Shown: positions 15,925 through 60,666 of the stretch, piece by piece | Layout of the letters: every line of letters starts with the position of its first letter | Position numbering within the stretch: position 1 is the stretch's first letter | DNA from: an uncultured Planctomycetaceae bacterium | GTDB taxonomy: Bacteria > Planctomycetota > Planctomycetia > Isosphaerales > Isosphaeraceae | Length of the DNA stretch: 64,000 nucleotides | Direction: 5' to 3' | NCBI GenBank assembly: GCA_963833985.1 | Contig: CAWIAD010000002.1 | Location: forward strand, 4,320,001-4,384,000 | Position numbers and translations under genes: made by a program | The notes under the pieces: model-generated | What the model was told of the DNA's origin: nothing | Database searches by the model: none | Seen by the model: only the letters and a program-made list of their open reading frames with translations

Positions 15925-16291
15925 GCCTGTTCGTCCCGGTCTGGTCTGTCGCTGGAACCGAACCCTCCGCGCAGGGACCAAGCCGTTTCCCGCGCGGGGT
16001 TCGCTGCGTGCCGGTTTGTTGTGAGTGCAAGAAATTCAGAAAACGGACGGCGGAATCCAGAACGAACCCCGCCCTGACGGAGAATCAACCCGGAACAGGA
16101 CCGAGGTCGCGTCCCGCCGAAGCCAGCTCGAAGGCCCGATGCGGCCGGCCCGGCCGGGCCTCGCCCGCGGGGCAGGCCTGCCAGGCCCGGATGACGGCAT
16201 TCAATGATTCAATGACGATAATTTCTTAGACATCCTTACATTCGAATGACGGATCAGCGGGAGCACCGTGACAGCGGGCCGCGCGGGGGGC

Positions 16292-17413: not shown

Positions 17414-17735
17414 AGACCTCCCACGGAGAGATGATTCCAGCCCACGCCCGCCGACTCGTGCCGATCATCCGGGGGTTGACTTTGTCCTGGAAACCAGGTG
17501 TCCACCGTATTCCAGAGCCTCGCGTTGGAGTTACGGAATGAGCTGTGCGGCTCACCTCACCCCCATTATCGGGCCCCCGAGTGATCAGATCAAGCTGATG
17601 GCGGTCCACAACTTCGGCGCACTTCACCCGTTCCAAACCAGAGCGGACCGGTGCGGCCTTCCTGGTCCGCCCTTTCCCGGCCGGGGGGGTTGGCACCCAC
17701 ACCGGCCGGTCATGGCCATACATGGAACTCCCGTC

Positions 17736-19473: not shown

Positions 19474-19964
19474 GGGTGATGAGCTCCAGGGAGGAATATC
19501 GAGCCCGGACCGGCGCAGCGCAGTGGCCACGACCGCTCGCTCGGTCCCCTTGACCGCGTTTGCAAATAGGTGACCCCGCCCGCGCGCTCACCGAGCGCGA
19601 GAATCTGGCATAGCGTCAGGTACGGCTGCACGATTCCTGCTGTGACTACAAGGCGACCGACACGGTCCAACCAGACTGCGGGCATCCGACGGGAATGAAA
19701 AATCGATGATGACTCCTAAGCTTACCAAGCCGTTGGACTTTGAGCAAGCGAATACGAGGGAATTCGCGATCCCGGAAGTCTCCCGCAGGCAGCCTGGCGC
19801 GTGATCGCAGCAACGAGGTGCGCCGTCATCATCGACCTATCCCGGTGGCCGTTCCGGTGCAACGGCCGCGTCGGGAAGTTCCAGCCGCTTCTCAGCCGGC
19901 GCGCAATCCACTAAACTCGACTTCCAGGGTCTGCTCGCACGCGTCTCGACCGAGGAAAGCCGCC

Positions 19965-42606: not shown

Positions 42607-44124
42607 ATGACAGACCTGGTGCCGATTCTTGCTGGAACCACCGTGGCGACGGGTATCGCCGGTCTCGACGACATTCTCAAGGGCGGCCTCACCGCCAACC
42701 GGCTTTATCTTGTGGAGGGTAATCCCGGCTCCGGCAAGACGACGCTGGCGATCCAGTACCTCCTCACTGGAGTCGCACGCGGAGAGAAGGCGCTCTATGT
42801 GACGCTCTCCGAGACGCGCGAAGAGCTTGAATCGGTGGCGGCCTCGCACGGCTGGTCGCTCGAGGGAATCGAGATCGTGGAACTCGTGCCCTCGGAGATC
42901 GATCTCGAGCCGGAAAACCAGTACACGATGTTCAAACCGGCCGACCTGGAGCTGGGCGCAACCACGAAGCGCATCCTCTCCCAGGTGGATCGTGTCAAGC
43001 CGTCACGGATGGTTGTCGACTCGCTTTCAGAGATGCGGCTGCTGGCGCAAAGCCCCTTGCGTTACCGCCGGCAAGTGCTTGCGTTCAAGCAGTATTTCAC
43101 GGGCTGCCGATGTACCGTGCTGTTCCTGGATGATCTCACGTCCGAGGCCTCCGACCTTCAGCTTCAAAGCATCGCCCATGGCGTTCTGAGCCTGGAGCAA
43201 CTCTCGCCGGAGTACGGGGCGGAAAGGCGCAGGCTTCGGGTCATCAAGCTGCGTGGCAGCTCATTTCGTGGCGGATACCATGACTTCATCATCAGCCGGG
43301 GCGGCCTGAGCGTCTTTCCCAGGCTGGTCGCCGCCGACCATGAACACGTTAACCAGTCGATCGACCAGCTTCCCAGCGGGATCCCGGAGCTCGACCAGTT
43401 GCTCGGCGGCGGAATCGAGCACGGGACCAGCATGCTCTTGCTCGGTCCGGCCGGATGCGGCAAGTCGTCGATGGCACTTCAGTTTGCCGTGTCGGCGGCA
43501 TCGCGCGGCGAGCGGGCCGCGATGTTCATCTTCGATGAGCGGCTGGAGACGCTCCAGGCCAGGGCGGCCGGACTCGGAATGCCCTTGCAGAAGCACCTGA
43601 AAACAGGTGCCATCCGGATCCAGTCGGTCGACCCTGGCGAGCTCTCGCCCGGCGAGTTCGCCATGAATGTGCGGCAGGCCGCGGAAGTCGACAGGGATGG
43701 TGTGCGCACCCGGGTGGTCGTGATCGACAGCCTCAACGCCTACATCAACGCCATGCCCGAGGAGCGGTTTCTGGAGATCCAGCTTCACGAGCTGCTCACC
43801 TACCTGGGCCACGAGGGCGTGATCACGCTCATCATTGCCGCGCAGCACGGCATCGTGGGCGAGATGCGTAGCGTCGTCGATACATCGTACCTGGCCGATT
43901 CGGTGATCATGCTGCGTTACTTCGAGGCGTTTGGAGCGGTCCGGCAGGCCGTCTCCGTACTCAAGAAAAGGAGCGGCCCACACGAGCGGGGCATTCGCGA
44001 GCTGACAATGGAGAGCGGTGGACTTCATGTCGGCAGACCGCTCACGGAATTCCAGGGAGTGCTCAGTGGGAAGCCAGTCTTCCTCGGTTCCGACACGTCG
44101 CTCTTGAGGCCGTTCAATGAGTGA
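42607..44124 (+). CDS. KaiC-like double-domain ATPase (non-canonical, Ser-Tyr at the phosphosites)
   Basis: GNPGSGKT and GPAGCGKS Walker A motifs; [29 protein letters not shown]. Confidence 0.88.
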
Positions 44125-46115
44125 TCCGCACTCCGGGATGGCCTGCCAGGATGAAAGAGTGCTGCTCTTGCTGCCCACGCTCCGTGACCAGCAGGTCACT
44201 CGGGGCATCCTGGACGCGGCAGGCATCGCTTCATGCCCATGCTCTGGCATGGACGAGCTGTGCCAGGAAGCCGCGCGCGGAGCCGGAGCAGCCATCGTCA
44301 CTGCGGAGTCCATACTCTGGGGCGGCTTCACGCCCCTCACCATCTTTCTGAGCAGCCAGCCTCCCTGGTCCGACATGCCTTTGATCGTCCTCACGGCTAC
44401 CGCCGACGAGTCCTCGGAACGGATCAATCGCCTGCTCAGCGCCGGCCACATGACCCTGGTGAAGCGCCCCGTCGATGTTTCCGCGCTGGTGACGACCGTG
44501 CAGAGCGCCATACGCGACCGGCGGCGGCAATACGAGGTGCGCCGGCTCATCGCCGAGCACGAGAGGCAGGCAGCCGAGATTCGCGACAGCGAGGAGCGTT
44601 TCCGCACGCTCGCCGATAGCGTGCAGCAGCTCTTCTGGACCACCAGGGCCGATGGACAGTGCGATTACCTGAGCCGGCAATGGGTCGAGTACACGGGTAT
44701 TTCCGAAGCCGAGCAACTGGGGCTGCAATGGCTGGAGCTGGTGATTCACCCGGACGATCAGCAGCGTGCGCTGGCCTGCTGGGAGCGGGCCGTCGCCGGA
44801 GAGGATCGCTACGACCTGGAGTACCGCATGCGCCGATTTGACGGCGTATACCGCTGGTTCAAGACGCGGGGCACACCGCTTCGCGACGAGCAGGGCAAGA
44901 TCAGCCGATGGTTCGGCACCTGCACCGATATCGACGATCAGAAGCAGGCTCAGGAGGCGCTTCGCGACGCCGATCGCAAGAAGGACGAATTCCTGGCGAT
45001 GCTGGCGCATGAACTACGAAACCCGCTGGCGGCCATTGGCAGTGCCGCCTTGCTTCTGGGCTCAAGTGATCCACGGGCCCATACGCCGTGGGCCAAGGAG
45101 GTCATCGACCGCCAGGTGACGCAGCTGGGACGGCTCATCGACGACCTGCTGGACGTCTCGCGAATCACCCAGGGAAAGATCGAGCCTCCGCAAGGAAGTC
45201 GTCGAGGTCTCTCGCGTCCTGACCTATGCCATCGAGTCGGTGCGTCCGCTCATCGAACGGTGCCATCACAGGCTGGAGATCGCCTGCGGCCCGGGGCCTC
45301 TGCGCGTGGAAGCCGACCCGACCCGGCTCGAGCAAATCCTGGTCAACCTGCTGAGCAATGCCGCAAAGTACACCTCGCCCGGGGGACGCATCGTGGTCAG
45401 TACAGTCCACGACGGCTCCCAGGTGCTCATCCGCGTGGCCGACAACGGCATCGGCATCCCGCCGGAAAAGCTGCCCTCGATGTTTGAGCTCTTCACCCAG
45501 GGCGATCGTTCACTGGCACGCACCGAGGGCGGCCTGGGTATCGGGCTCACACTGGTCAAGCGGCTCACGGAGTTCCACGGCGGATCGGTCACGGCCAGAA
45601 GCGATGGCAAAGGCCTCGGGTCGGAGTTCGTTGTCAGATTCCCCTCGGCGGCCCAGTCCGGTCCGGAAGAGCGAGAACCCGCAGCCTTACCGCCCGCCTG
45701 GACCAATCAACCCAAGCACATCCTGGTCGTCGACGACCAGCCGGATGCGGCCTGGGCCTTGAGCAAGCTGCTCGAACGGCTGGGCCACGAGGTCCAGGTG
45801 GCTCACGACGGCCCGGAAGCGCTGACGCTGGCGAATCGGCAAACGCCCGATTGCATCCTTCTGGATATTGGCCTCCCTGGAATTGACGGCTACGATGTGG
45901 CCTGGGAACTGCGAAAAAAAGACGACTTCAAGAAAACCGTCATCATCGCCATCTCCGGCTACGGACAGGAAGAAGACCGCCGGAAGTCGCTCGCCGCCGG
46001 CTTCGATCATCACCTGGTCAAGCCCGTCGATCATGAAGAATTGCTCTCCCTGGTCGGCCGCGCCGGTCTCGACCGCCCCGATCGTGACAGGCGAGAGGCC
46101 GCGGCTCACTTCTGA
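44117..46115 (+). CDS. Pseudo-receiver-PAS-HisKA-HATPase-REC hybrid kinase; frameshift near 45185
   Basis: Overlaps the kaiC-like stop; [14 protein letters not shown]-terminal domain, [15 protein letters not shown]. An extra C at GKIE-L joins ORFs 44117-45487 and 45240-46115. Confidence 0.88.
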
Positions 46116-46351: not shown

Positions 46352-46699
46352 ATGAGCACGGACGAGAGACCAGCGGATCTGCTCGTCGAGGCGATCGGAG
46401 AATTCCGCCTGGAACTCATGCAGTGGATTGATTTTCAGTTGAGTCTGCTCTCCCAGCGGGAAGCCCGGCCTGGGGACGCCGGGGTGGCGGCCGGAGTTGA
46501 CGGCAGCTCCACTCACCGGCACGAGGCCCAGGCCATACCCATGGCGGAGGCGGACGTGCCATTTGCTCCGGCCAGCCCGGCACCGCACGAGGTTTCCGAG
46601 GCTGCAACGCAGGTTGACCCCAGGCTGCGGCTCGACGCCCTGGCCCGAAGGCTGGGAGAGCGAATCCGCCACAGCGAGGAAACACGCAAGGGACCCTGA
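46352..46699 (+). CDS. Small hypothetical protein
   Basis: Helical ends (EAIGEFRLELMQWID; DPRLRLDALARRLGERIR) around a low-complexity linker. Confidence 0.55.
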   Translation: MSTDERPADLLVEAIGEFRLELMQWIDFQLSLLSQREARPGDAGVAAGVDGSSTHRHEAQAIPMAEADVPFAPASPAPHEVSEAATQVDPRLRLDALARRLGERIRHSEETRKGP

Positions 46700-46744
46700 G
46701 GACGTGGAAGCCACAGGCTAAATAGCTCCCCATAAGAGGGAAAG

Positions 46745-46798
46745 TGTGGGACAGCCGCCCTCGGCCGTCCTGAGCCAGCCGAGGGCGGCTGGCCCACA
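46745..46798. repeat. Long intergenic inverted repeat (21-bp arms, one mismatch)
   Basis: TGTGGGACAGCCGCCCTCGGC-N12-GCCGAGGGCGGCTGGCCCACA. Confidence 0.75.
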
Positions 46799-46902
46799 TT
46801 CCTGGAGTCGAGGCTCTATTTAGTACGGAAAGAGTGCTGGCACGGCTGGTCCCGCGGTCGCGGTACGGTCGATGACGATGCGAAGTCAAGGAACCAGGCA
46901 GT

Positions 46903-47424
46903 ATGGCCGATGACGAGTCGTTTTGTTTATTTCACTGTGAAGGGCAGGCGTTCGCGGTTGCCGTCGCCAGCGTGGCCGAGATCGCCGAGGTGGACGCCCT
47001 GGTCCGCATCAGCCTCTGTCCTCCGCAGATCGCCGGGCTCTGCCCTTATCATCGGCAGGTCGTGCCCGTGGTGAGCTTCGCGCACGCCATCGCACAGGAG
47101 ACGGTCCCCGACGCCGAGATCCGCCCTGCCGCCGGCCCGTCCCGTGTCGTTGTGCTGATCCTGGATACCAACCAGGGGCTCTGGGGGATCATGATCGATC
47201 GCAAGGGGGTGAGCATCAGCTCCCGGAGACCGGAGCGGACCGAGCCCCGAGAACGAAGCGACGGAGTGGTGACGGCGGGGCACATCGAACACCAGGGGGT
47301 CGTCTACAGCCTGCTCGATGCCGAGCACACCTGGCACGGACTGAGAAACGCGGTGGCCGGCTGGTACGCCTTCCTGAATGAGTCCACCGCGGCCCGGCGC
47401 GTCGGCGCCCAGGTTGCGCTTTGA
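46903..47424 (+). CDS. cheW: CheW family coupling protein
   Basis: FCLFHCEGQAFAVAVASVAEI...PPQIAGLCPYHRQVVPVV...WGIMID. Confidence 0.8.
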   Translation: MADDESFCLFHCEGQAFAVAVASVAEIAEVDALVRISLCPPQIAGLCPYHRQVVPVVSFAHAIAQETVPDAEIRPAAGPSRVVVLILDTNQGLWGIMIDRKGVSISSRRPERTEPRERSDGVVTAGHIEHQGVVYSLLDAEHTWHGLRNAVAGWYAFLNESTAARRVGAQVAL

Positions 47425-47504
47425 AACCTTGAAAGCGGTTCGGGGCCGGTAAGCCCCGGTATGACAGGGGTCAACAGAGTCTGGCTCTGACTTCGAGGGA
47501 CGGC

Positions 47505-48885
47505 ATGCCGTTGCAAGCTGGGGCGATGGTGCTGGGAGCGATCCTGGGTTTACTGGGCGGGGGCGCGACGATGGCCGCGCTGCTGCTGCTGAGCCTCTCC
47601 GGCAAGATACGCGGTTGGCATCCTGCCCGCGGCGCTGGCCGGGGCTAGCGCGGCCTGGCTGGTCTGCCGCCACGCGCTGGACCGGGCCGCCGACGGCCTG
47701 GAGATGTTGACGAGCGACGAGCACGACAGTGCCGGAACGATGGCTTCACCGCCCGGGATCGGACACGCGGTCCTGGACGGCGAGCTGGCCCGGCTGCACG
47801 AGCGCCTCCAGCAGGCAAGCCGGCTCCAGTACGAGCTGGGGAAGGCGGAGCATACGGCGCGGGTCTTTTGCGCGTCGCTGAATGGATCGGGCTCGCCGGC
47901 CGGTAAGGAAATCAGCATGGGCGACGTCGGGGCGAAGCTGCCGGGCCTACTCGACCGGCTGCGGCAGACGGCGATTGCCATTCATCAGGACGCCGCATCG
48001 CTGGGCGAGGTGAACGAGCATGTCGCCTCGGGAGCGGCCGACCAGTCTGACGCCGTGGGCCGCACCGCGTCGGCGGTCGAGGCGCTCTCGGAGAAGATCG
48101 ATCGCATCTCCACCAGCGCCGAGGAAGCCGCTCAGGCCTGCGAGCGCGCCCGCGACGAGGCGCGCCGCGGGCTCGAGCAGGTGCACAGCGTGATCGAGGG
48201 GATGGACCGCCTGCTTGCCCAGATCGAGACCAACGGCCGCAAGACCAAGCGGCTCGAGGACCGGTCCAACGAGATCGGCGTCATCGTCGACCTGATCCGC
48301 GACATCTCCAGCCGCACCGACATGCTGGCCCTCAACGCCACCATCGAATCCGTCCGCGCCGGCGAGCACGGCCGCGGCTTCGCCGTCGTTGCCGAGGAGA
48401 TCCGCAAGCTCGCCGAACGGACAGCCACCGCCACGCGTGAGATTGGCACCATCGTCGAGGCCATCGAGGTGGATACGCACGAGACGATCCGCGCCCTCGG
48501 CCAGGAGCAGACCGAGATGCAGCGCGAGAGTCAACGCGTGCGTGAGACCGGCTCGGCGCTCGAGCGCATCAGCCAGGTTGCCGAGCACTCCGCACGCCTG
48601 GTCGAAGGGATCTCGCGCTCCACCAACGATCAGGTCGTCGCCACTCAGGACCTGGTGCGGGCCATGCAGCGGATCTCCGAGGTGACCAACCAGACGCTGG
48701 AGCGCACCACGGTCTCGCGGACGGCCCTGCAAGCGCTGGTCAGGTCTTTTGAACCCTGGCAGAAGCTGGCTGCCGGCGGGCTCGCGGGCGAGGACGCCAG
48801 GCCCGATGAGCCAGCGCACGGCGTGCCGCGATTGCACGATTCGCGGAGGGCCCGCAAGCTGGCCGGGGAAGAGGTGGCCCGATGA
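47505..48885 (+). CDS. Methyl-accepting chemotaxis protein with two adjacent TM helices; frameshift near 47605
   Basis: Hairpin tip [40 protein letters not shown] 47505 after GAGGGA. TM1 ([13 protein letters not shown]...) and TM2 ([20 protein letters not shown]) are in adjacent frames. Confidence 0.85.
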
Positions 48886-51800
48886 CGCGAGCGGCTGAGA
48901 ACCGCCCGGCCGAGCCCGTCTCCCTCTCCAGCCGTCTCGAAGAGGCTCTCGGGCCGATTCGGACAGGCACTCGAGGGCACCTTGCCGCTCTGCCAGCTCG
49001 AGGAGGTTCGCACCGCGATCGATGCCTTGCGGAGCGAGGTCGAGAGCCGCGGCCTGCATGGGCGTTCCACCGCGCTGGGGCGGATCAGCGCGCTCACCGA
49101 GGTCTGGGAATGCCTGGCGGGCGACCCACAGAACCATCCGGACGAGGTTGGCTTTTTCTGCGCCAAGGCCCTCAGCCAGCTTGCCCGCGGGGAAGATCCG
49201 GCGGACAACGGGCACGACGGAATCGTGGAATGGATCCTCGAGCATTCCTCATCCGCCTGGGGCGAATACCTGCAACTCATCGAGAGCAAGCCGCAGGCTG
49301 GCAGCGATCCCGACGCCGCAGGCGACGGATTCGAGCTTCCGCCGGAGCCCATTGACGATGTCCTCGCGGACGCCGACACGGGCCAGGACCTGCTGATCGA
49401 CGCACAATCCTTGCTGAGGCTCTTCCAGGGGGGCACGCCGGACCCTGGCGCTCGGGCCGCGACCGCGGTTCCGGAGCCGCCGGCCAGGGTGACACCTCCG
49501 CCTCCGCACTTCGGTGTCGTCCCTCCGCCTCGGCCCGCCGCGCCCATGCCGGCGCGAGCGAAAGCTCCGGAACGCCCGCCGAAGGAGCCTGCCGCATTCC
49601 AGGTTCCTCCCCTGCCCTCCGAGATCAACCTCGACGAGGAGATCCGCGAAGCCTTCCTGGCCGACACGTCGGACCTGCTGGAACGGATCGAGCCGCGGGT
49701 GCTGGGGCTCGCCCACGAATCAGACCCCGGGCCCTCACTCCGAGAGCTGGGACGCTGCTTTCACACGCTCAAGGGAGCCGCCGGCAGCGTGGGCCTGGGC
49801 GACCTGGCGGCCCTGGTGCACGCCCTGGAGGAACATCTGGAGGAGACCAGCGGACCGGCCTCGCCTGAGCTGATCGATGTGCTCCACCAGACGCTCGGCT
49901 ACCTCGACGGCGTCGTCGGCCTGCTCCGCAACCGCAACGCACGACCCGCCGGCCTGGGCCCCTCCATCGCCAGCGGCGATGCTGCGGGCGGCCGGACGCT
50001 GCCCCTCGAGCAGGCGGCCGTCATGTCCCCGGCCCAGGCCGTCACGACCGCCGGCCCCGATGCCCCGGACTTGCCACTCCAGGGCTCCTCCACCGAGGTG
50101 GCGGCCGCGGAGGGCACCTCGGCCTCTTCCGACGGGCCAATCCGCGTGCCGGCGTCGCGCTTCGATGACCTCATGGACATCGTCTCGGAGCTGATCGCCA
50201 GGCGCAGGCTCTGGAGCGACCAGGCCGGGTCGCTCAAGTCGATGTCCCAGGTGGTTCGCAACTGCCGGGGGCGGATGCTGGCGATCCTCGAGCGGCTGCA
50301 CGAGACCGGCCTGGGACGGGAAAACCGCACGCTCGACACCGCTTCCGGGGTCGACCTGCCCGGACAGATGCGCCGGCTTGGTGAGCTGGCCGACGACCTG
50401 TCGGTGCTGGCCGAGACGGCCCAGGCGGCGGCCCTGCCCCTGGCCGATCATGGCGATGCGCTGGGCCGGCTCACGCTGCAACTGTGGGACGAGCTCCAGC
50501 GGATCCGCATCGTTCCCATTCGCGGCCTCTTCCAGCGGCTGGCGCGCGTGGCCCATGACGCGGCCAGGGTGGAGGGGCGGCACGTCGAGGTGGTGCTCGT
50601 CGGCGAGGAGACCGGGCTCGACCGCGCCGTCCTGGACAAGGCCTTTGAGCCGCTCCTGCACGTGGTTCGCAACGCCGTGGGCCACGGCATTGAAACGGCC
50701 GCCGATCGGCAGGCCGCGGGCAAGCCCGCAGCCGGACGGATCACCCTCGAGGCCCGCAGGGAAGGCAACACGCTGGTCATCTCGGTTCAGGACGACGGCC
50801 GGGGACTGAACCACGAGGCCATCGCCGCCAAGGCGCGGAGGCTCGGGCTGCTGCGCCCCGATGAGAACCCCAGCATCGAACGGCTCAACCACCTCATCTT
50901 CCATTCCGGCTTCTCCACCAAGCAGGAAGCCAACGCCATCTCGGGCCGCGGCGTGGGCATGGACGTCGTGGCGCGCGAGGTGGGGACTCTCAAGGGAACC
51001 ATCGAGCTCCAGACCGAGCAGGGCCGGGGAACGCGGCTGACGATCCGCCTGCCGGCGCGGCTGGCATTGGAGACGGCCATGATCGTCCGGGTCGACGGCC
51101 AGGCCTTCGCGCTGCCGGTCGCCCAGATCGAGTTCGCGCAGCCGCTGGAAGGGGCGCCGTCAAGCGCCGCGGGAACACCGACCAGTCCACCGGAGATCCA
51201 GCAGGTGACGTTCCGGGACCAGCGCATAGCCGTGATCCATGCACGCAAAATGCTGGCGCCGGGCAGTACGTCGCCACCGCCGTGGCCTAAGCTTCTCGTG
51301 GTGCGATCGGCGAGCGGCCTGCTTGGCCTGGCCGTCGACAGCATCGAGGGCACCGAGGACCTGGTGATCAAGTCGCTGGGAGCGCTCCTGGCGGGTCACC
51401 CGGTGATCTCGGGAACCAGTCTCTCGCTCACAGGCGAGGTGATCACGATTCTCAATTCCTCCGGCCTGGAACGCTGGTCCAACGGTGGAGAGCCCCAGCA
51501 ACCGGCGGAATTCTCGGGGTCCGCCCCCGCGCTGAAGCTGAAGCAGCGTGCTGGCGAGAAGGTGCTTGTGGTCGACGATTCCATCAGCGTCCGGCGGGTG
51601 ATTGTCAGACAGCTCCGCCGCCTGGGTCTGGAAGTCGAGGAGGCCTCGGACGGGCTGGAGGCGCTGGGACGGCTGCGGTCGCGCTCTTATCAGCTGGTGG
51701 TGACCGACCTGGAGATGCCGCGCCTCGACGGCTTCGAGCTGCTGGCCGAACTGAAACGGCATCCCCCGCTGGCGGCGATACCGGTGATCGCCGCAAGCAC

Positions 51801-51927
51801 GAAGCGAGACGAGGAAACCCAGAAGCGGGTGCTTGCCCTGGGGGCCAGGGCGTTTCTGGCCAAGCCGGTAGACCCCTCTGCCCTGGCACAGGCCGTTGCA
51901 CCGCTCCTTACTCCTGCGGGCGGCTGA
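48882..51927 (+). CDS. cheA: CheA-REC hybrid kinase (Hpt, dimerisation, HATPase, CheW, REC); frameshift near 48960
   Basis: FHTLKGAA Hpt, [21 protein letters not shown]...[10 protein letters not shown], CheW domain, [18 protein letters not shown] overlap with the MCP stop. Confidence 0.92.
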
Positions 51928-51955
51928 AGTCGACCGATCCATTCTCGGAGAAATC

Positions 51956-53497
51956 ATGGAAAACCCGCTGATCCTCGTGATCGACGACAGCCAGACCATC
52001 CGCAAGATGGTCGAGTGCCACCTCTCTCAGGCCGGCTACCGGGTGTCCCTGGCGCCTGACGCCGAGCAGGGTTTGCAGATGGCGCGCACGCTGCAACCCG
52101 ACCTGATTCTCCTGGACCACCAGCTTCCCGGAACCACCGGAGACGAGGTGTGCCGCAAGCTGCTGGCCGAAGAGCTGACCTGCCGCGTGCCCGTGGTCAT
52201 CAGCTCGGCGATGCGGAACCGGGCCTTCGCCCAGTACACCGAGTTCCCCAACGTCGTCGACCAGATCCCCAAGCCGTTCACTCCCGAGCTGCTCAAGAGC
52301 GGCGTGTCCAATGCGCTCCAGACAGGGGCGATGGTCGTGCAGGCCCAGCGGACCGGCTGCGCCATGCCCGAGGCCGTGGGCGAGGCCCATGAGGCCACGC
52401 TCGAGGGGAGCACCGGCGCATTCCCCCTGCCCATGGTGCTGGCGTTTCTGAACAACCTCCAGCAGAGCGGCCGGCTCACCCTGGAAACCGGCAACGATCG
52501 GATTCGCTTCGCACTCTCCGGGGGCAGGGTGCAGGCCGTCTACTCGCCCACGATCGCCGCGGATCGTCTCGAGGGGAGCCTGCCGGATGACCTGGTGGAC
52601 CTGGGGCCGCTCCTGGGCCTGACTCTGGGGGAACAGCAAGACCCATCGATGAGCGGCCTGGTGAAGATGCTGGAGCGCAGCCTTGCCGACCCGCGCCGGC
52701 TCCGCGCCTTGTTACGGTTCCAGGCCGCCTGGCTGACCTATTCCGGTCAGGCCGGCGAGCCCGGCAAGTTCCACTTCGAGCCGGTGAACGTGCTCCCTCC
52801 CATGTTCCAGGCCCTGCCGCTCCAGCTCAGCGCCGCTGCCCTGCTGGTGGACGGCACGCGCTACTCGGGCGCCCGGTTCGACGCCGAGGAGTGCGGGCAA
52901 ATGGTCTTCGCGCGGCAGGCGGCGCGAGGAGGCAACTCCGACCGCGCTGGGCTCTCCAATGCCGAGATCAAGGTCTACACGCTCCTGGATGGCAGCCGTT
53001 CGTTGAAGGATGTTTGCCGCGAGGCCGGGCTCTCCCTGGCGGACGTGGCCGCCACCGCCCACGGCCTGGAACTGGCCGGCATGCTCGAGCGGCGGAATCC
53101 GTCGTCCACCGAGTCCATCCTGGCGCTCGACGACGACCCCGAGACCGTCCGCCTGATCCAGCGCGTGCTCGGCCCCGAAGGAACCAACCATCAGCTCAAG
53201 GTCGTGCGCGATCGCGTGGCCGCGCAGCTCCTCTTCCGCCGCCAGACCTTCAACCTCGTCATCATGGCGATCGACCGGCCAGAGCAGGAGGCCTTTTTCC
53301 AGGCTTGCAAGCGTCAGCATGGCTCGGGATGCCACTACGTCGGCATCTCCAGCATCGAGGATGAGAACGAGCTGTCGCGGCTGGACGCGATGGGGCTCGA
53401 CGGCGTGCTCCATCGGCCGGTGAGCGAGGGCGACCTGCTCGCCACGGTGAAGCATCTCTTGAAAATGGCTCGAGCCACCATGGCCGGCGTCGCGTGA
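51956..53497 (+). CDS. Response regulator: REC + DUF4388/PATAN-like + winged HTH + degenerate REC
   Basis: VIDDS...LILLDHQLPG...KPF; LEGSTGAFPLPMVLAFL...SGRLTL...FALSGGRVQA; LLDGSRSLKDVCREAGLS; C-terminal LALDDD...VLHRPV. Confidence 0.8.
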   Translation: MENPLILVIDDSQTIRKMVECHLSQAGYRVSLAPDAEQGLQMARTLQPDLILLDHQLPGTTGDEVCRKLLAEELTCRVPVVISSAMRNRAFAQYTEFPNVVDQIPKPFTPELLKSGVSNALQTGAMVVQAQRTGCAMPEAVGEAHEATLEGSTGAFPLPMVLAFLNNLQQSGRLTLETGNDRIRFALSGGRVQAVYSPTIAADRLEGSLPDDLVDLGPLLGLTLGEQQDPSMSGLVKMLERSLADPRRLRALLRFQAAWLTYSGQAGEPGKFHFEPVNVLPPMFQALPLQLSAAALLVDGTRYSGARFDAEECGQMVFARQAARGGNSDRAGLSNAEIKVYTLLDGSRSLKDVCREAGLSLADVAATAHGLELAGMLERRNPSSTESILALDDDPETVRLIQRVLGPEGTNHQLKVVRDRVAAQLLFRRQTFNLVIMAIDRPEQEAFFQACKRQHGSGCHYVGISSIEDENELSRLDAMGLDGVLHRPVSEGDLLATVKHLLKMARATMAGVA

Positions 53498-53549
53498 GCG
53501 GACGGCCGGAAGGACAATGCGCGCGGTGAACGCGCGCGGAGTGACCAGG

Positions 53550-54546
53550 ATGACTGATGGAAGAAGCGAACCCGACTACGGCCAGGAGACTGGCAGCGAG
53601 GGGGACCTCGACTACCTGGAGACGATCGCCCTGCTCCAGGACGAGATCGCGCGCCTGGAATCCGAGCTGCTTGCCCAGCAGGATCTCGCGGCTCGTTCCT
53701 CTTTGGGCGGCCATTCCCGGACCGCGGCCGAAGCGGACGGCGTGGCGGCAGACCGGCATCACCTGGAGCAAATGGCCGCGGAACTGGCTGCGCGGGAGGA
53801 GACGATCAACCTGCTGCTCGAACAGCTTCGCCTGGTCGAGGAAGCCGAGTCGGCCAGCCGGCTGGAATGGGAGCAGCTCTCGGAGTGGGTCTCCGAGGTC
53901 GAGGAGCGGCTTGAGCGGCAGGCAGAGACAGCCGCCGGACAATCCGCTCAGGAGCTGGAAACGCAGCGCCGCGCGCTTGAGGAGTCTCGCGCACGCCTGG
54001 GCGTGGAACGGCAGGCCTGGACGACGCAGCGCCGCGACCTGGAAAACGAGATCGCTCGGCTGCAATCCCTGCTGGCACAGACGGCGAAGGAAGGTGCCGG
54101 CAGCGGCGACCGGGCCGGGATGGAACTCCTCGAATCCGAGAACCAGCGCCTCATGAAGCAGTGCCAGGAGTTGCAAAAGGCGGCCTTTTCCGAGATGGAG
54201 TCGCTGCGCCAGGAGGTCGAGGCGGCGCGGCAAGGCAAGGAAGAGGCCCGCAAGACCTGCGAACAGGTCCAGGACGAACGCGACCGCGAACGCCGGGAAT
54301 ACGAGATCGCGATTACCTCGATCCGCGCAGTCGTCTCGGGCGGCCCTCGTCGCGCACGAGAGCGAACTGGCCGTCGTCCGGCCCGTCGCGGCTGCCGAGC
54401 CGGCCGGCGCGATCGAGGCTGATCTGCGGATCCGCGAGTTCCGGCAGCATCTCAAGGAGATTCACAACCACGAGGCGGAGGCGCGGAACCGCAACCGGCT
54501 GGGCGCACGGCTATCACGCCTCTGGACCAGGACGGCACCACGATGA
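53550..54546 (+). CDS. Coiled-coil protein; frameshift near 54335
   Basis: E/Q/R/L-rich heptads; the shifted frame gives ADLRIREFRQHLKEIH...RLGARLSRLWTRTAPR and stops in an ATGA overlap with the next gene. Confidence 0.7.
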
Positions 54547-55143
54547 ATATGAGCCCCTCCCACTCGAACGAGCGAACCATTGAGCTGCGTGCCAGACCGC
54601 GATCCGCGAAGGCCGCGCTGCCCTCAGCGACCGCTGTCTCGCCTGCCGACGCGGTCCTGAAAGTCAATCTCGAGGAGCTGCGCCGCTACGTCCTTCGCCG
54701 GCTCGATTCGATCGAGGCGCTGGCCAGAGGCTGCTCCGGAGTGCCCTCCGCCGAGCTGGCGCGGTCCGAGCAGATGCTCAAGCAGACGCTCGAGGAGCTG
54801 GAGCGGGAACGTAACCGCGCACGCATCGACGCGGCCGGCCCGGACGCGGCAGGGAAGCAGATGCTGATGCAGCTCGAGAACGACCGGCAGTTGCTCACGG
54901 ACGCCTGGGAACGGCTGGAACAGGAACGCATTGACGCGCTCACGCAGGGAACGACCGCCCGGCCGGCCCACGCTGACCACGCGCCTCATCCGGTCGACGC
55001 TCAGGTCGTGCACGGCCAGCCTGCGCAGCGCCGGCATGGGCGCGGAGAACGCCAACCCCGTCGCGGAGTCCATCCTTCGTCAGTTTCAAACGCTCTGTAG
55101 CGATGTCCGCCGCACGACGGACGCTCGCCTCTCACCGCATTGA
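54543..55143 (+). CDS. Coiled-coil protein; probable frameshift between 54960 and 55025
   Basis: LEELRRYVLRRLDSIE...LENDRQLLTDAWERLEQERI; the shifted frame ends NPVAESILRQFQTLCSDVRR. Confidence 0.65.
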
Positions 55144-55157
55144 TAGGGCGCCACCCC

Positions 55158-56263
55158 ATGTCCGTGAACCTTTCCCTGGAGCAGAAACGCAAAGGTGAGC
55201 AGGACGCCCCGCGGCACGACCGGCCCACCCCGGTCGCCTCGGCCTTACCACGCCGTCACCGCGGTCTGGCCGGACGCTTCCTGGCATGGATCGCACCCGG
55301 CAAGCCAGCCCGCGCCGGATCCTCCAGAACCGCCAGTGACGGCGACCGGAACGCCGCCGCCGAGCGATCCGCCGAGGAGCGCGGCAATCCCGACCTGGGA
55401 ATGGCCCGCAAGCTCATCGCCCAGGACCGCTACGGATTCGTGCTGCTGCGCGAAGCCATGGGACAGATCGACGACAGTGACGTCCGCACCGCCTGGGGAG
55501 CACTGAATACGCAGATGGCCCTGGTGCCGGCCGGCAACGTGCCCCTCATGCTCTGCGACGGCAGCCTGGCGGCCGTTGAACTGGAAGGCTTCTACCTCGA
55601 CCGCTGTGCGGTCACCAACCGTCAGTTCCAGCGGTTCGTGACCTCGGGCGCTTATGACGACCTGCAAATCTGGCCGACGGAAGTCTGGCCCAGCGTGGCC
55701 CGGTTCACCGATCTTTCGGGCCGGCCAGGCCCGCGCGACTGGGAGCACGGCAAGTTCCCCGCCGGAAAAGCCGAACATCCCGTCGTGGGAGTCTGCTGGT
55801 ACGAGGCCGTGGCATATTCCCGCTGGGTCGGCAAGCGCCTGCCCACGGCTGCCGAGTGGCAGAAGGCCGGCGGCTGGCCCGAGCAGCTCAGCGGAGGTAC
55901 CTGCAACCGCTATCCCTGGGGCAACATGTATGAGCCGTGCGCACCAACCTCTCCTCGTCCGGGCTTGGGCATACCGTGCCCGTTCGCGAGTATCCCGCGG
56001 GCGCCACGCCCAACGGCATTTACCAGATGACCGGCAACGTCTGGGAATGGCTCGACGACCCGCTGGAAACCATTCCATGCAGGCCCGGCGAGTATTTCCA
56101 GGCGTGGAAGCCGTTGCGCCGGATCATCGGCGGCGCATTCAATACCTACTTCCCCAACGAGGCAACCTGCCAGTTCGTCACCGGCCAGGCCGAGCTCGAT
56201 CGCCGTGAGAACATCGGCTTCCGGTGCGCCTTGAGCCTCCACCAGCTTCAGCCCTTGCCCTGA
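55158..56263 (+). CDS. Formylglycine-generating enzyme (FGE/SUMF1) fold protein; frameshift near 55940
   Basis: MALVPAG, FYLDRCAVTNRQF, HPVVGVCWYEA, RLPTAAEW, RYPWG, NGIYQMTGNVWEW, NIGFRC. Confidence 0.88.
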
Positions 56264-56341
56264 GCCTGTTTGAACACTGCGCACGCAACCCCGGCCGAAC
56301 TTGCTTGACCTTCACAGATGCTGGCTTTTTCGAGAGTTCCC

Positions 56342-57244
56342 ATGTCGAACGCACCGTTGCTCATGGAGTACAACCGGCAGGCGAGCGACTTCGCGTGCCC
56401 CCTGTGCGGGGGCCACACTTACGAGGGTGAGCCCTGCGGCACTTGCTTCGTCCCCTTCAAGGTCATCGAATCGATCCGCTCGCGCCCGCACCCTCCCCGG
56501 TTCGTGGTGGTCCTGGGACCGACGGGCGTGGGCAAGACTGTCTACCTGGGCATGCTGCTGGACCAGCTCTCCCGCGGCGCCAGCGGACTCCAGGGTCTGT
56601 CGCGCAGCCCGTACTCGCTGACCTTGCACCGCAACTTGATTCTGGCGCTGGAGCGCCAGAGGTTTCCCGAGAAGACTCCCGTCGAGACGGACCGCTGGAA
56701 CTGGCTGCACTGCGAGATCATGACTGCGCGGGGTAAGAACAAGGGAGCGGCCGATATCGTCACGCCCGACGTCGCCGGCGAGGCCGTCAGCGCGGAGATG
56801 GAGAATCCGGGTACGCACAAGACCATTCGCGCGTTGATCAGCCGGTGCTCGGGTATGGTTGTCCTGGTGGATCTGGTGGAGGTCGTGGCCGACGGACGGG
56901 GCCAGGAGCTGTTCGCGATGCAGCTCATCAGCTACCTGGATGCTCTGCGTCCGGGCCGCAAGAAAGCCCGCAAGCTGGAGATCCCGGTCGCGGTCGTCTT
57001 CACCAAGGCCGACCTCTTCGAGGAGTGGATCAGCGATCCCGAGGCATTCGCGCGGGGGAACGTCTCCAGCCTGCATGCCCAGTGCCAGGCCCGGCTGGAG
57101 CACTACGCGTTTTATTGCTCCGGCGTGGCCGGCTCGTCGGCCAAGCTGGTGAGCGACTCGGGTCAGGAGTACCTGGTCCCCCTGCGCGTCGAGCCCAGAG
57201 GAATCATCGAGCCGTTCGCGTGGATGGTCGACAAGCTGGGCTAA
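56342..57244 (+). CDS. TRAFAC-class P-loop GTPase (double-GTPase-system-like) with N-terminal Zn ribbon
   Basis: CPLC-x9-CGTC; G1 GPTGVGKT, G2 FPEKT, G3 DVAGE, G4 FTKAD; C-terminal PRGIIEPFAWM. Confidence 0.85.
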   Translation: MSNAPLLMEYNRQASDFACPLCGGHTYEGEPCGTCFVPFKVIESIRSRPHPPRFVVVLGPTGVGKTVYLGMLLDQLSRGASGLQGLSRSPYSLTLHRNLILALERQRFPEKTPVETDRWNWLHCEIMTARGKNKGAADIVTPDVAGEAVSAEMENPGTHKTIRALISRCSGMVVLVDLVEVVADGRGQELFAMQLISYLDALRPGRKKARKLEIPVAVVFTKADLFEEWISDPEAFARGNVSSLHAQCQARLEHYAFYCSGVAGSSAKLVSDSGQEYLVPLRVEPRGIIEPFAWMVDKLG

Positions 57245-57256
57245 AGGAATGCGCAC

Positions 57257-57919
57257 GTGTGGGCGGAGCAGGCGATCTTCACATCTCTTCCCCGCAACGG
57301 CCGCGGGGGATACCACCTGGTCTCGCGGTCCAGGGGGATCAGCGGCCAGGAGGCTCAGGCCATCGCGCGCTGGTCGCCATCGCACGGGTCGCTCCAGCAA
57401 GACCAGCATAACCGCGTGAGCGTCAATTTCCACGGCCTTCCCGGCGGGCGGTTCGCGCTCTCGAGGAGCTGCGAGGGACCTCCGGAATACAGCGGCCGGG
57501 GCGGCCGCCAGCTTTACACGCACGTGCTGGTGATCGACCTGGAAAGCCTTCAGACCGTCGGCGGCCAGCCATTCGTGATCTACCGCAACGCCCTGGCGCT
57601 CGGCCACCTGTTCTACCAGGTGAGCCCTGCCGAGCTGCTGGAACCCATCGAGCTGCCGGCATTTCACGGCGAGGTCGACACGGCCGCCTGGCTCACCCGC
57701 GCTCGCAAGCTTGGGTTCCCTCCGCTGGAGCCGATCCGCGAGCGGTTGCTCGGCGGGCGGCCCGTGCGGTTGCCTTACGCCGGCGACCGCGCGGCCCTGG
57801 CCGAATGCCTCGTGGGCTCGCTGGGACCCGGAGCCGTCGCGAGGATCAGCTTCGCCACCAGCCTCCAGCCCTCGTCTGATCGGCCCTTCGTGCTCTCACT
57901 CGTCGACAGCCGGAAGTGA
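57257..57919 (+). CDS. GAP1-N2-like (GTPase-associated protein 1 N-terminal) domain protein
   Basis: EQAIFTS...GGYHLVSRSRGI...EYSGRGGRQLYTHVLV pattern recognised from memory; directly downstream of the GTPase. Confidence 0.65.
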   Translation: MWAEQAIFTSLPRNGRGGYHLVSRSRGISGQEAQAIARWSPSHGSLQQDQHNRVSVNFHGLPGGRFALSRSCEGPPEYSGRGGRQLYTHVLVIDLESLQTVGGQPFVIYRNALALGHLFYQVSPAELLEPIELPAFHGEVDTAAWLTRARKLGFPPLEPIRERLLGGRPVRLPYAGDRAALAECLVGSLGPGAVARISFATSLQPSSDRPFVLSLVDSRK

Positions 57920-57940: not shown

Positions 57941-58768
57941 CTAACTGCTCGCGCTGCGGTAGGACCGTAGCGCGTAATGAAAGAACCGGCGGCTGAGCCA
58001 GAGCATGACCACCGCGGCCACGATGGTGAGCACGACGAGAGACGGGTCGAACGCGCGCACCATCACGTTCGCCGGAACGTTCGAGACCACCAGGATCGGC
58101 ACGATGTACGTGAAGAAGTTGCCCAGCGGCTCGCCCAGGGGCCCCGCGAAGATCTCCTTGGGATAGCGCGCGAGGCTAGAAAACATCCACCACATCTCCA
58201 TCAGGCTCTGGTTGCGGACCAGCCAGACCGAGGTCGTCGTGAGCAGCAGCATGAAGCTGTATGCGATCGCGGTGGCGGCAGTCAGGGTGATCACGAACAG
58301 GACCACCCGCCCCGGATCGAAGTGCCATCCTTTCTGCACCAGGGCAATGATCATGAGAGCGCCCCCCATGAGGACATTGGGCGCTGTCCCCCAGTCGATC
58401 CGCCGCAGCGAGATCAGGAATTGCTCGTCGATCGGCCGCAACAGCAGGAAGTCGAGATCACCGGTGCGCACCAGCTCGGCGAACTCGTTGCAGTTCTCGA
58501 AGAAGAGCGTCTCCACGAGGCCGTTGATTGCGAAATAGCAGCCGATGAAGAAGAAGTAATCGGGTTCCGACCAGCCCGCCACGTGGCTGGTGCGGGCGAA
58601 GACGGTGCGGTAGAAGGCGATCATGATCCCCAGCCAGAGCACCTCGACGGAGACCTTCACCAGGAAGTTTCCCCGGAACGCCAGCTCGCGGCTGAGCGCG
58701 TACTGGCCCATGTGATAGAGCAGCCTGAGATACTTGCGCACGCTCGCGAGCACTGGCTCACCCTCCAT
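57941..58768 (-). CDS. ABC-2 family permease (DUF990-like)
   Basis: ELAFRGNF, VAGWS, VRTGDLDFLLLRPID, ARYP, YRSASS. Confidence 0.88.
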   Translation of the reverse strand: MEGEPVLASVRKYLRLLYHMGQYALSRELAFRGNFLVKVSVEVLWLGIMIAFYRTVFARTSHVAGWSEPDYFFFIGCYFAINGLVETLFFENCNEFAELVRTGDLDFLLLRPIDEQFLISLRRIDWGTAPNVLMGGALMIIALVQKGWHFDPGRVVLFVITLTAATAIAYSFMLLLTTTSVWLVRNQSLMEMWWMFSSLARYPKEIFAGPLGEPLGNFFTYIVPILVVSNVPANVMVRAFDPSLVVLTIVAAVVMLWLSRRFFHYALRSYRSASS

Positions 58769-59687
58769 AGGCGCTGTAGCGCGTCAGCCCCAGCCGGTAC
58801 AGACCGCGGCAGAGCAGCATGAAGACGACCACCCACATCAGTTGCAGGACCAGGTGCAGTACCAGCGTCCAGCCCTGCACCTTGCGCAGGAAAACGACGG
58901 CCGGGAAATAGGCCATGTACTGGAACGGCAGGGCTTTCAAGAGGGTGCACCACGGCTCCGGCAGCAGGTCCAGGGGGAGCATGTGTCCGGAGATGAAGAA
59001 GTTGAGCGTCATCACGATGTAGAGCAGCGACGTCACCTCCAGGAACCAGAACCCGACCATCCCCACGGTCGCCTCGAAGTAGAAGCCAACCAGGAACGCC
59101 AGTACCAGCGAGACGACGTAGGCAACCATCGTCAGGGCATCCGGGAAGCCGTCGAAGTAGCTATGGCAGAGCGCGAAGAGCGCGAAATACGGCAAGAACG
59201 ACATCGTGATGTAGGCGAGCTTGTGCGCGATGCGATACGAGAGCAGGTAGCCGATCATGTCGACCGGCTGGATCAGGTAGCGCTTCAGGGTGCCTTCGCG
59301 GATCTCACGCGCGATGCCGCCGGCCAGCCCCGGCATGCTCGAGAACATCCGGCTGATGTTCGTGAGCAGCAGGTAGGCGATCATCTCGCGGTAGCGGAAG
59401 CCCGCCAGCTCCGACGCCTCCGCGCCGTCGTAAATCGCTTTCCAGAGCAGGATCGTCGTCACCAGAGGCAGGAACCGCAGCACCGTCCCGAGCAGGAAAT
59501 CCGCCCGGTAGGTCATCCGTTCCGAGAGCGAGACGCGTACAATCTTGGTGTATTTCTTGATCCGTTCCAGCACGCCGATCGGGGGCGATTGCCGGAGCAG
59601 GACGTCCTTGGCCGAAGCGGCGGTCACAAGCGGTACGTGGGCGGGGGCGGGGGCGGCGGGCGCCGCCAGTCCGTCAGGCGGCGTCAT
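58758..59687 (-). CDS. ABC-2 family permease (DUF990-like)
   Basis: MTYRADF, IREGTLKRYLIQPV, SGHMLPLDLLP, LPFQY, RYSAYGG. Confidence 0.88.
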   Translation of the reverse strand: MTPPDGLAAPAAPAPAHVPLVTAASAKDVLLRQSPPIGVLERIKKYTKIVRVSLSERMTYRADFLLGTVLRFLPLVTTILLWKAIYDGAEASELAGFRYREMIAYLLLTNISRMFSSMPGLAGGIAREIREGTLKRYLIQPVDMIGYLLSYRIAHKLAYITMSFLPYFALFALCHSYFDGFPDALTMVAYVVSLVLAFLVGFYFEATVGMVGFWFLEVTSLLYIVMTLNFFISGHMLPLDLLPEPWCTLLKALPFQYMAYFPAVVFLRKVQGWTLVLHLVLQLMWVVVFMLLCRGLYRLGLTRYSAYGG

Positions 59688-60666
59688 GGTCGAGCCGTGC
59701 CTCCTTGAACACCTTGGCGATGATCTCCTCCAGAGGCGGATCTTCCACCGTCACGTCGGCCAGCGCGTGCCCTTCGAGCACCGCGCTGAGGATCTCGGGC
59801 ACGCGCGTCCGCTCGATCCGGATGTCGACGAAAGGCCCCTCGTTGCGGACCACGTGGCCGAACCGGCCCAGGTCCTGCGGCGCTTCGCCCTCGAACTGGA
59901 ACTTCACCAGCTTTGATTCGCCGAACTTCTCGATGATCCCCGCGAGCGGCCCGTCGTGGACCAGGGCGCCGTGGTTGATCACGATCACGCGCTCGCAGAG
60001 CGCCTCGACGTCGCGCATGTAGTGGCTGGTCAAAAGAACGGTCACCCCGCGGCGATCGTGATAATCGAGCAGGCATTTCTGAATCGCCGCCTGGGCCACG
60101 ACGTCCAGGCCGATGGTCGGCTCGTCCAGCAGCAGCAGCCTCGGCCCGTGCAGCAGCGCGGCGATGAGCTCCATCTTCATGCGCTCGCCAAGCGACAGCT
60201 CGCGAACCGCCTGCCTGGTCAGCTTGCCCACGCCCAGGATCTCGGTCAGCTCCCCGAGCGTCCGGTCGAACTCGGATTGCGGAATCGAGTAGATCTCGCG
60301 ATGGAGCTGGAAGCTATCGGCCGCCGGCAGGTCCCACCAGAGCTGGTTCTTCTGTCCCATCACCAGCGCGAACTGGCGGCGGAAGAGGTCGGCTCGCTGC
60401 CAGGGCACGAAGTCCAGCACCCGTGCCTCTCCGCTGGTCGGGTAGATCAGCCCGGCCAGCATCTTCAGGGTCGTCGTCTTGCCCGCCCCGTTGGGACCCA
60501 GGAACGCCACCATCTCTCCCGGCTCGATGGAGAAGCTGATCCGGTCGACCGCGCGGACCTCGCGATAGTCCCGCTTGTAAAGCCCCCGCAGCGCCCCGAG
60601 CACGCCCTCTTTCTTCTGGAAGACGCGGTAGGTCTTGCTCAGCCCCGTCACATCGATGATTGCCAT
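59674..60666 (-). CDS. ABC transporter ATP-binding protein
   Basis: GPNGAGKTT, LSLGERMK, LLLDEPTIGLD, TSH. Confidence 0.95.
   Translation of the reverse strand: MAIIDVTGLSKTYRVFQKKEGVLGALRGLYKRDYREVRAVDRISFSIEPGEMVAFLGPNGAGKTTTLKMLAGLIYPTSGEARVLDFVPWQRADLFRRQFALVMGQKNQLWWDLPAADSFQLHREIYSIPQSEFDRTLGELTEILGVGKLTRQAVRELSLGERMKMELIAALLHGPRLLLLDEPTIGLDVVAQAAIQKCLLDYHDRRGVTVLLTSHYMRDVEALCERVIVINHGALVHDGPLAGIIEKFGESKLVKFQFEGEAPQDLGRFGHVVRNEGPFVDIRIERTRVPEILSAVLEGHALADVTVEDPPLEEIIAKVFKEARLDHDAA

Follow-up and report, generated by a model that had tools for sequence, protein, structure and literature searches.

The stretch of DNA analysed here (the window) comprises 64,000 nucleotides from an uncultured Planctomycetaceae bacterium (assembly GCA_963833985.1, contig CAWIAD010000002.1, positions 4,320,001 to 4,384,000). 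We examined a run of ten co-directional genes at positions 46352–57919 of its forward strand, in which a sequence-only reading had seen a chemosensory pathway joined to a small-GTPase module. The ten genes were found at this position, in the order given by that reading. When each protein was searched against profiles, as had been proposed, Pfam backed every family label: CheW, MCPsignal, CheA (Hpt-HATPase-CheW-receiver), a response regulator (receiver-DUF4388-weak winged helix-turn-helix-receiver), FGE-sulfatase, DO-GTPase2 and GAP1-N2. The scores were 35.2 bits for DUF4388 (cut-off 25), 45.5 bits for DO-GTPase2 (cut-off 27) and 61.7 bits for GAP1-N2 (cut-off 24), and the genome's sole DUF4388 and GAP1-N2 matches are those of the run. 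The first protein, orf1, matched no family in Pfam or NCBIfam, and the two coiled-coil proteins, CC1 and CC2, matched none in Pfam. The ATGA overlaps reported at 48882 and 54543 were present in the sequence, and in four intact relative loci the intergenic gaps ranged from −4 to 119 bp. A scan for promoters and terminators performed at chance level, returning no promoters and five terminators (5.1 expected), none of them on the forward strand.

The run, all on the forward strand, opens with orf1 (46352–46699), a small helical protein with same-position homologues in 24 of 97 scanned loci. It is followed by cheW, encoding a coupling protein (46903–47424; PF01584, E = 2.4e-12), a chemoreceptor gene (47505–48885; PF00015), a gene for a CheA-receiver hybrid kinase (48882–51927), and a gene for a response regulator composed of a receiver, a PATAN (DUF4388) domain, a winged helix-turn-helix and a pseudoreceiver (51956–53497). 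CC1 (53550–54546) and CC2 (54543–55143) come next. The remaining genes encode an FGE-sulfatase-fold protein (55158–56263; PF03781), a zinc-ribbon DO-GTPase (56342–57244; PF19993) and the short form of a GAP1-N2 protein (57257–57919; PF20013), referred to below simply as GAP1. In two relatives (loci L044 and L117) a stand-alone receiver gene lies upstream of the run.

Compared with the intact relative loci L001 and L004, five of the ten genes carry one frameshift each: those for the chemoreceptor (near 47610), CheA (near 48945), CC1 (near 54325), CC2 (near 55035) and the FGE protein (near 55935). By a single tblastn method, frame switching was detected in 2 of 8 genes inside the run and in 12 of 49 outside it, a count that may include a few paralogue or shadow-ORF artefacts. 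Because a similar share of the genes outside the run switch frame, the frameshifts probably reflect an error-prone assembly. The five frameshifted genes could instead mean that the run is decaying in this one genome, which is a question separate from its mechanism. We regard this as improbable, given the comparable share of frame switches elsewhere in the assembly and the intact genes of close relatives.

The sequence-only reading had noted that cheR, cheB and flagellar genes were absent. This was confirmed for cheR and flagellar genes, as the genome's six CheR matches and one FlhA-family match all lie outside the window; for cheB the absence holds among the ten open reading frames, no genome-wide CheB search having been made. 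The chemoreceptor was assigned to the 40H class on the basis of a nearly gapless alignment with 6s18 and an alignment gapped on both arms with receptors of the Escherichia coli type. The 40H class is common also to the ACF and F6 systems and is not specific to the pilus (Tfp) class. In the intact orthologue (L001), two N-terminal hydrophobic helices are separated by almost no loop, and there is no sensor domain. The strict methylation motif was found in 1 of 35 family receptors, compared with 9 of 12 references. Such degenerate methylation sites are consistent with the lack of CheR and CheB in the cluster.

CheA has kept the histidine of its Hpt domain and the aspartate of its receiver. Tfp-class kinases have multiple Hpt domains; here Pfam recognizes one, and the helical N-terminus of 200 residues may be a degenerate second one. 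The P3 region is extended, with a core of 415–453 residues versus 342–351 in the E. coli, Phaeobacter and Pseudomonas F6 references. A C-terminal receiver, the lack of P2 and an extended dimerisation domain define the Tfp-class CheA in the available text of 10.1101/2023.09.19.558490. The CheA of the run shows all of these features, which ACF kinases have too, so that they are not diagnostic alone. In a tree of 45 rows, the 23 family CheAs formed one clade (support 99/98), with a Deinococcus system as its sister (99/94), and a quick tree of 136 rows placed the family apart from WspE and the flagellar references. Among ten CheA neighbours that were looked up, three were labelled by their source, two of the ten as ChpA. 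In the response regulator, Asp54 and Lys106 are invariant in 23 sequences, and hence the first receiver is phosphorylatable; a sequence search of the PDB with this protein returned receiver domains only. By these features, the chemosensory half looks pilus-type (Tfp-like).

Two other classes were considered for this half and rejected. For an ACF (Wsp-type) system, it is another CheA of the genome, and not that of the run, that falls in the WspE clade, and the window has no CheR match. For flagellar chemotaxis, flagellin had no match in the 60 family genomes searched, and the CheA lies outside the flagellar clades. It may be noted that the genome holds four other che clusters (C2:733567–740359, C1:2646744–2650535, C1:65954–72332 and C2:5569625–5575161), all of them adjoined by a CheR match; one of their CheAs groups with WspE and the others with flagellar-type references, in a non-flagellated genome. 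The FlhA-family gene of this genome, which has no flagellin match, is located at C2:5216763–5218841 and is possibly the export gate of a type III secretion system.

CC1 relatives in Planctomycetaceae and Pirellulaceae carry an N-terminal FHA domain. CC2 is planctomycete-specific, its ESM Atlas match being one unnamed planctomycete cluster. A match of CC2 to HmpF (E = 0.016) was treated as that of a generic coiled coil, and this identity was rejected. Over the last 210 residues of the FGE domain the column identity is 0.57–0.82 in 28 orthologues, and no template repeat of a diversity-generating retroelement was found for it in the genome. In this the FGE protein is unlike a diversifying effector. 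A separate set of FGE alignments ends ahead of the region of the catalytic cysteine.

The GTPase has retained its motifs: G1, G4 and the zinc ribbon were each present in 44 of 44 sequences and G3 (DxxGE) in 40 of 44. Its predicted structure (predicted local distance difference test score, pLDDT, 86) has a Ras-superfamily fold, matching RagD (Z 14.6), LokiRagO (14.3), Miro (14.2), Rab6 (14.0) and MglA (12.3). An MglA/MglB module was considered and rejected: MglA ranked only 32nd by fold, the GTPase belongs to PF19993, and the MglB family (PF03259) had no match in this genome. A sequence search of the PDB yielded no significant relative of either the GTPase or GAP1.

The model of GAP1 (pLDDT 95) has an N-terminal domain with the strand-helix order of a longin and, after it, an alpha/beta domain. 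The highest-ranking structural match was TagF of Acinetobacter (Z 7.0, root-mean-square deviation (rmsd) 4.4, 183 residues aligned; Foldseek E 4e-4). NPRL2/GATOR1 chains and a Lokiarchaeal longin (Z 6.6) were matched as well, and DENND10 and DENND1A/B aligned over the whole chain with Z 5.3–6.0 (DENND10: Z 6.0, rmsd 5.2, 187 residues aligned over residues 1–220; DENND1A: Z 5.8, 184 residues). Most of the top 25 matches were longin or longin-DENN proteins (Z 4.2–6.6). Glu77 and Arg81 of the motif E77-x-S-x-R81 were invariant in 68 of 68 sequences, as was Arg209, and the motif was found in 29 of 30 long homologues. In the model, Arg81 sits in the hairpin loop between strands 66–76 and 84–93; the eukaryotic arginine finger presumably occupies the same longin loop. 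Longin GTPase-activating proteins (GAPs) use such a finger according to the available text of PMC12290439, and catalytic arginines have been placed in the longin domains of FLCN, NPRL2 and SMCR8 in the accessible parts of PMC12290439, 10.1101/2020.04.15.042515 and PMC9473554.

The predicted GAP1 shares with the eukaryotic longin-DENN regulators (DENND1, DENND10, NPRL2, FLCN/FNIP2, SMCR8) and with TagF a longin fold and, putatively, an invariant arginine in the longin hairpin loop. It differs from them in that the resemblance is distant (Z 5–7, whole-chain rmsd 4.4–5.2, 5–14% identity, no match at the sequence level) and in that the short form lacks a helical third domain. We propose with modest confidence that the modelled GAP1 has a longin plus DENN-like fold, an assignment that is new here, as is the Ras-superfamily fold of the GTPase model. 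GAP1 is quite likely to regulate the GTPase, and Arg81 may possibly be catalytic. The best matches (PDB 9t0n and 6iz8) suggest a longin/DENN-like build for TagF too; a literature search for TagF together with DENN found nothing relevant.

Searching species genomes with the GTPase retrieved 322 relatives; the analysis retained the best 79 loci, a sample skewed to close relatives. All but one of these were titled Planctomycetota (78 of 79); the exception, L019, is titled Solirubrobacterales, yet its GTPase is 73% identical to that of the window, and the sequence is probably mis-binned. Among the best 79 loci, the FGE-GTPase-GAP1 triad was intact in 70 of the 70 with sufficient flank, and the full regulator lay 3–6.5 kb upstream in 36 of the 59 with at least 6 kb of flank. 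In an even draw of 301 genomes of the class, the GTPase was present in 68 (as a single copy in 67) and the regulator in 35. Within the family of the window, both genes occurred in the same 24 of 59 genomes. They were adjacent in 22, and in two genomes the run was split in mid-contig, both parts being still present. Outside this family, three genomes carried both genes, adjacent to each other, 40 carried the GTPase only and seven the regulator only. No GTPase was detected in any of the 70 genomes of one further family (f5) or in 76 of the 78 of another (f2). In the phylum, a profile search matched 6 of 301 genomes, with weak matches outside the class (E about 1e-13); a single-protein search was insensitive (3 of 301).

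The full gene order recurred in Isosphaeraceae, Planctomycetaceae and Pirellulaceae, and the run is present in the cultured Singulisphaera acidiphila DSM 18658, Aquisphaera insulae JC669 and Tautonia sp. JC769. Inspection of 18 regions revealed full runs, che genes with the FHA-coiled-coil gene only, the GTPase module only, the two splits within contigs and, in two cases, a second che copy ending after the regulator. Conservation of the order from cheW to GAP1-N2 across Planctomycetota, which the sequence-only reading had wished to see examined, was borne out to the extent of three families and 22 adjacent pairs in 24 family genomes, but the two halves are not obligately coupled, as the GTPase-only and regulator-only genomes and the splits make clear.

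In a GTPase tree of 54 rows, three clades were well supported: che-linked Isosphaeraceae (18 rows, including one split locus), che-linked Planctomycetaceae/Pirellulaceae (8 rows), and 28 rows with no che genes (support 100/99), che absence being judged where the flanks allow. The CheA tree reproduced both che-linked groups. Pairwise identities of CheA and the GTPase were correlated (rho 0.84 for 18 loci; 0.77 within 11 Isosphaeraceae loci), the values coming from kin that are not independent. Linkage to che genes also tracked the form of the neighbouring proteins. The N-terminal hydrophobic helix of the FGE protein was absent in 22 of 22 che-linked loci and present in 6 of 6 che-less ones, making the che-linked protein soluble, and GAP1 measured about 220–250 residues where che-linked and about 450 in most che-less loci.

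Some variant loci were also seen. The second cheW-chemoreceptor-cheA-PATAN regulator copies of two family genomes, without the downstream genes, lie at L114:3583–10000 and L115:2626–8900. Three che-only loci end, in place of the GTPase module, in a protein of about 300 residues without a Pfam match (L110:9461–10366, L111:8829–9779 and L112:10055–10969, all on the reverse strand). In family f90, FGE and GTPase genes occur without an adjoining GAP1 match (L122:8950–11274 and L123:7409–9769).

From the gene content, the conserved order, the intact catalytic motifs and the predicted folds, we infer how the products might interact and what their output might be. We tentatively propose that the run is one operon, encoding a pilus-type chemosensory pathway that serves no flagella and does not adapt, joined to a small-GTPase/longin switch for the positioning of type IV pili. 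The membrane receptor lacks a ligand-binding domain; it would sense a mechanical or protein cue and set the activity of CheA, and CheA in turn would phosphorylate both the receiver that it carries and the PATAN regulator, the latter at Asp54. As in cyanobacteria, the motor of the type IV pili would then be the target of the PATAN domain. CC1 and CC2 would form a scaffold tying the array to the soluble FGE-GTPase-GAP1 module, in which GAP1, by means of its longin domain, would control the GTPase's nucleotide state; a GAP using Arg81 is likelier here than a guanine nucleotide exchange factor of the DENN type. The GTPase would mark the cell site of pilus action, the role of MglA/MglB. The PATAN regulator is no less direct an output of CheA than the GTPase, which is a putative one. 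Where the two halves are linked, they probably work together.

Pili are the output to which we are, on balance, inclined. According to the available text of 10.1101/2021.06.11.447907, PATAN is another name for DUF4388, a domain that in Synechocystis binds PilB1 and PilC, and cyanobacterial pilus chemosensory systems lack CheR and CheB; PATAN proteins outside cyanobacteria have many architectures, and the PATAN domains assayed so far act on pili. Several observations weigh against the proposed pathway as a whole. Outside the family of the window, the regulator is missing from 40 of the 43 genomes that carry the GTPase, and the GTPase from 7 of the 10 that carry the regulator; two second che copies stop after the regulator, and two family genomes split the run. 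The gene pilT is near-universal in the class (292 of 301 genomes), and its co-occurrence is therefore uninformative. Type IV pilus genes about 27 kb from the run had been taken as a functional clue by the sequence-only reading, a point that had to be given up: in six near-complete relatives the distance between pilT and the run is 130 kb to 3.8 Mb, and because the closeness is not kept, the 27 kb seen here carry no weight. The sequence-only reading had named pilus-controlling and alternative-function systems as those typified by CheA-receiver hybrids. The receiver and long P3 of CheA, the 40H receptor and the PATAN regulator are pilus-type features, but the family CheA did not group with the two gammaproteobacterial ChpA-type references, in trees that contain no cyanobacterial or myxobacterial CheA. 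As to the predicted folds, the GTPase is no nearer to Rag than to Miro, Rab or Arf. The GAP1 scores (Z 5–7) are under the tool's caution line of Z 8 and gain their weight from a list whose top is almost all longin or DENN proteins; the first of its matches is TagF, a regulator of type VI secretion that is not known to have a GTPase partner. The GP motif that longin GAPs carry ahead of the second strand was found in 0 of 68 GAP1 sequences; the invariant Gly18 is followed there by Tyr or Phe, giving GY or GF in 65 of the 68.

The frequency of GTPase-only and che-only loci, the separate clade of the che-less GTPases and the two split runs would all fit two independent modules that share a transcript or a neighbourhood, namely a Tfp-like che pathway whose last member is the PATAN regulator and, apart from it, a unit made up of CC2, FGE, GTPase and GAP1. 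We consider this rather unlikely, since the same order is found in two deep che-linked clades, the two halves are jointly present or absent across all 59 family genomes, the two split ones included, and the FGE anchor and the GAP1 length shift with che linkage. Also unlikely, in our estimate, is a single coupled pathway with a non-pilus output, positioning a bud, a holdfast, an aggregation structure or an envelope structure. The run has no genomic link to pilus genes, the FHA-coiled-coil and membrane-anchored forms of relatives suggest a general polar scaffold, and the varied architectures of non-cyanobacterial PATAN proteins, as far as the text of the source goes, leave room for it. Against such an output stands the action on pili of the PATAN domains assayed in that same text. 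The class divides by budding, and the lack of a detected GTPase in nearly all genomes of families f5 and f2 argues against core division machinery; control of budding had been entertained earlier, and an essential role in it is unlikely because of the patchy distribution of the GTPase (68 of 301).

A GTPase-centred conflict (anti-invader) system of the kind described by Kaur et al., in which the FGE protein would act as effector while the che pathway either triggers the response or is a bystander, would account for the DO-GTPase2 and GAP1-N2 scores above the Pfam cut-offs and for the patchy distribution, and planctomycete GAP1-N2 systems with FGS effectors are listed in the available text of PMC7159879. 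Yet the FGE C-terminus is conserved with no template repeat in the genome, the GTPase is kept at one copy in all but one of its genomes, the triad has a fixed content at every testable locus, CheA and the GTPase co-diverge, and the FNIII component of those systems had no match in the ten run proteins or in 37 proteins of relatives, part of the flanking genes having been scanned. We judge this explanation quite improbable.

The pilus-positioning pathway proposed above resembles several known systems in part. The GAP1-N2 DO-GTPase systems defined by Kaur et al. in 2020 consist, as far as the accessible text goes, of a zinc-ribbon DO-GTPase with a glutamate after DxxG followed by GAP1-N2, with an FGS domain in the planctomycete ones (PMC7159879). 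The run differs from them in its single GTPase, the lack of a hypervariable effector, the short GAP1 and the linked full chemosensory block. The claim that the whole architecture was undescribed must therefore be narrowed, as the FGE-GTPase-GAP1 triad had already been noted for planctomycetes there. The main text of the same paper mentions no CheA, CheW, chemotaxis, longin or DENN; its neighbourhood data may list che neighbours. The cyanobacterial Tax/Hmp systems (PatA-type, Tfp), as described in the available text of 10.1101/2021.06.11.447907, have in common with the run a CheW, a receptor, a CheA-receiver hybrid, a PATAN regulator, a coiled-coil partner (HmpF) and the lack of CheR/CheB. They differ in a PATAN-receiver order of the regulator, and the run has a sensor-less receptor and the added GTPase, GAP1 and FGE genes. 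The sister CheA belongs to a Deinococcus cheY-cheW-chemoreceptor-cheA-DUF4388 stretch (L128), which likewise adjoins a DUF4388 gene and holds no cheR or cheB; its DUF4388 is stand-alone, and no coiled-coil, FGE, GTPase or GAP1 gene lies in the 17 kb inspected. In Myxococcus, the chemosensory system Frz, the Ras-like GTPase MglA and its roadblock/longin-related regulator MglB act on pilus polarity. The logic is the same, but the run has a DO-GTPase, GAP1 in place of MglB, all genes together, and no CheR/CheB.

In PMC3521125, longins are traced back to MglB-like roadblocks, and no bacterial DENN module is reported in the available text; a DENN module consists there of an N-terminal longin, a central alpha/beta DENN domain and a helical d-DENN. 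A literature search, judged from titles and abstracts with most subscription papers outside its coverage, found no description of the che-GTPase link, the operon, or GAP1 as a longin or DENN protein. Two preprints mention DO-GTPases in passing; one of them states that profilin-longin-like domains often accompany GTPases and cites unpublished observations, and its group may know of the GAP1 longin link. The run is apparently an undescribed, conserved combination of two known kinds of module.

The run offers a compact and deletable candidate, available in cultured strains, for the means by which planctomycetes without flagella detect surfaces and establish polarity, and it may be an undescribed planctomycete way of setting cell direction. 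By this example, a conserved signalling role in place of conflict is suggested for one or more branches of the DO-GTPase ‘conflict’ systems. The longin/DENN-like fold predicted for GAP1 bears on the origin of eukaryotic small-GTPase regulators. That planctomycetes put a eukaryote-like switch under the command of a chemosensory array, and in this way answered independently the problem of pilus steering that Frz-MglA solves, is a speculation to which we give little credence.

The neighbourhood of the run was also inspected. Upstream on the forward strand (42607–46115), a duplicated KaiC-like ATPase gene is followed by a PAS histidine kinase-receiver gene split over two frames, these labels being assigned by eye. 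Further away, on the reverse strand (14209–19530), two pilB-type ATPase genes stand on either side of pilT. Downstream, a three-gene ABC-2-type transporter (57941–60666, reverse strand) is convergent with the run, and the same neighbours occur in relatives L006 and L155. Beyond the planctomycetes, GAP1-like clusters appear in the ESM Atlas for Actinomycetota, Pseudomonadota, Bacillota and Thermoplasmatota archaea.

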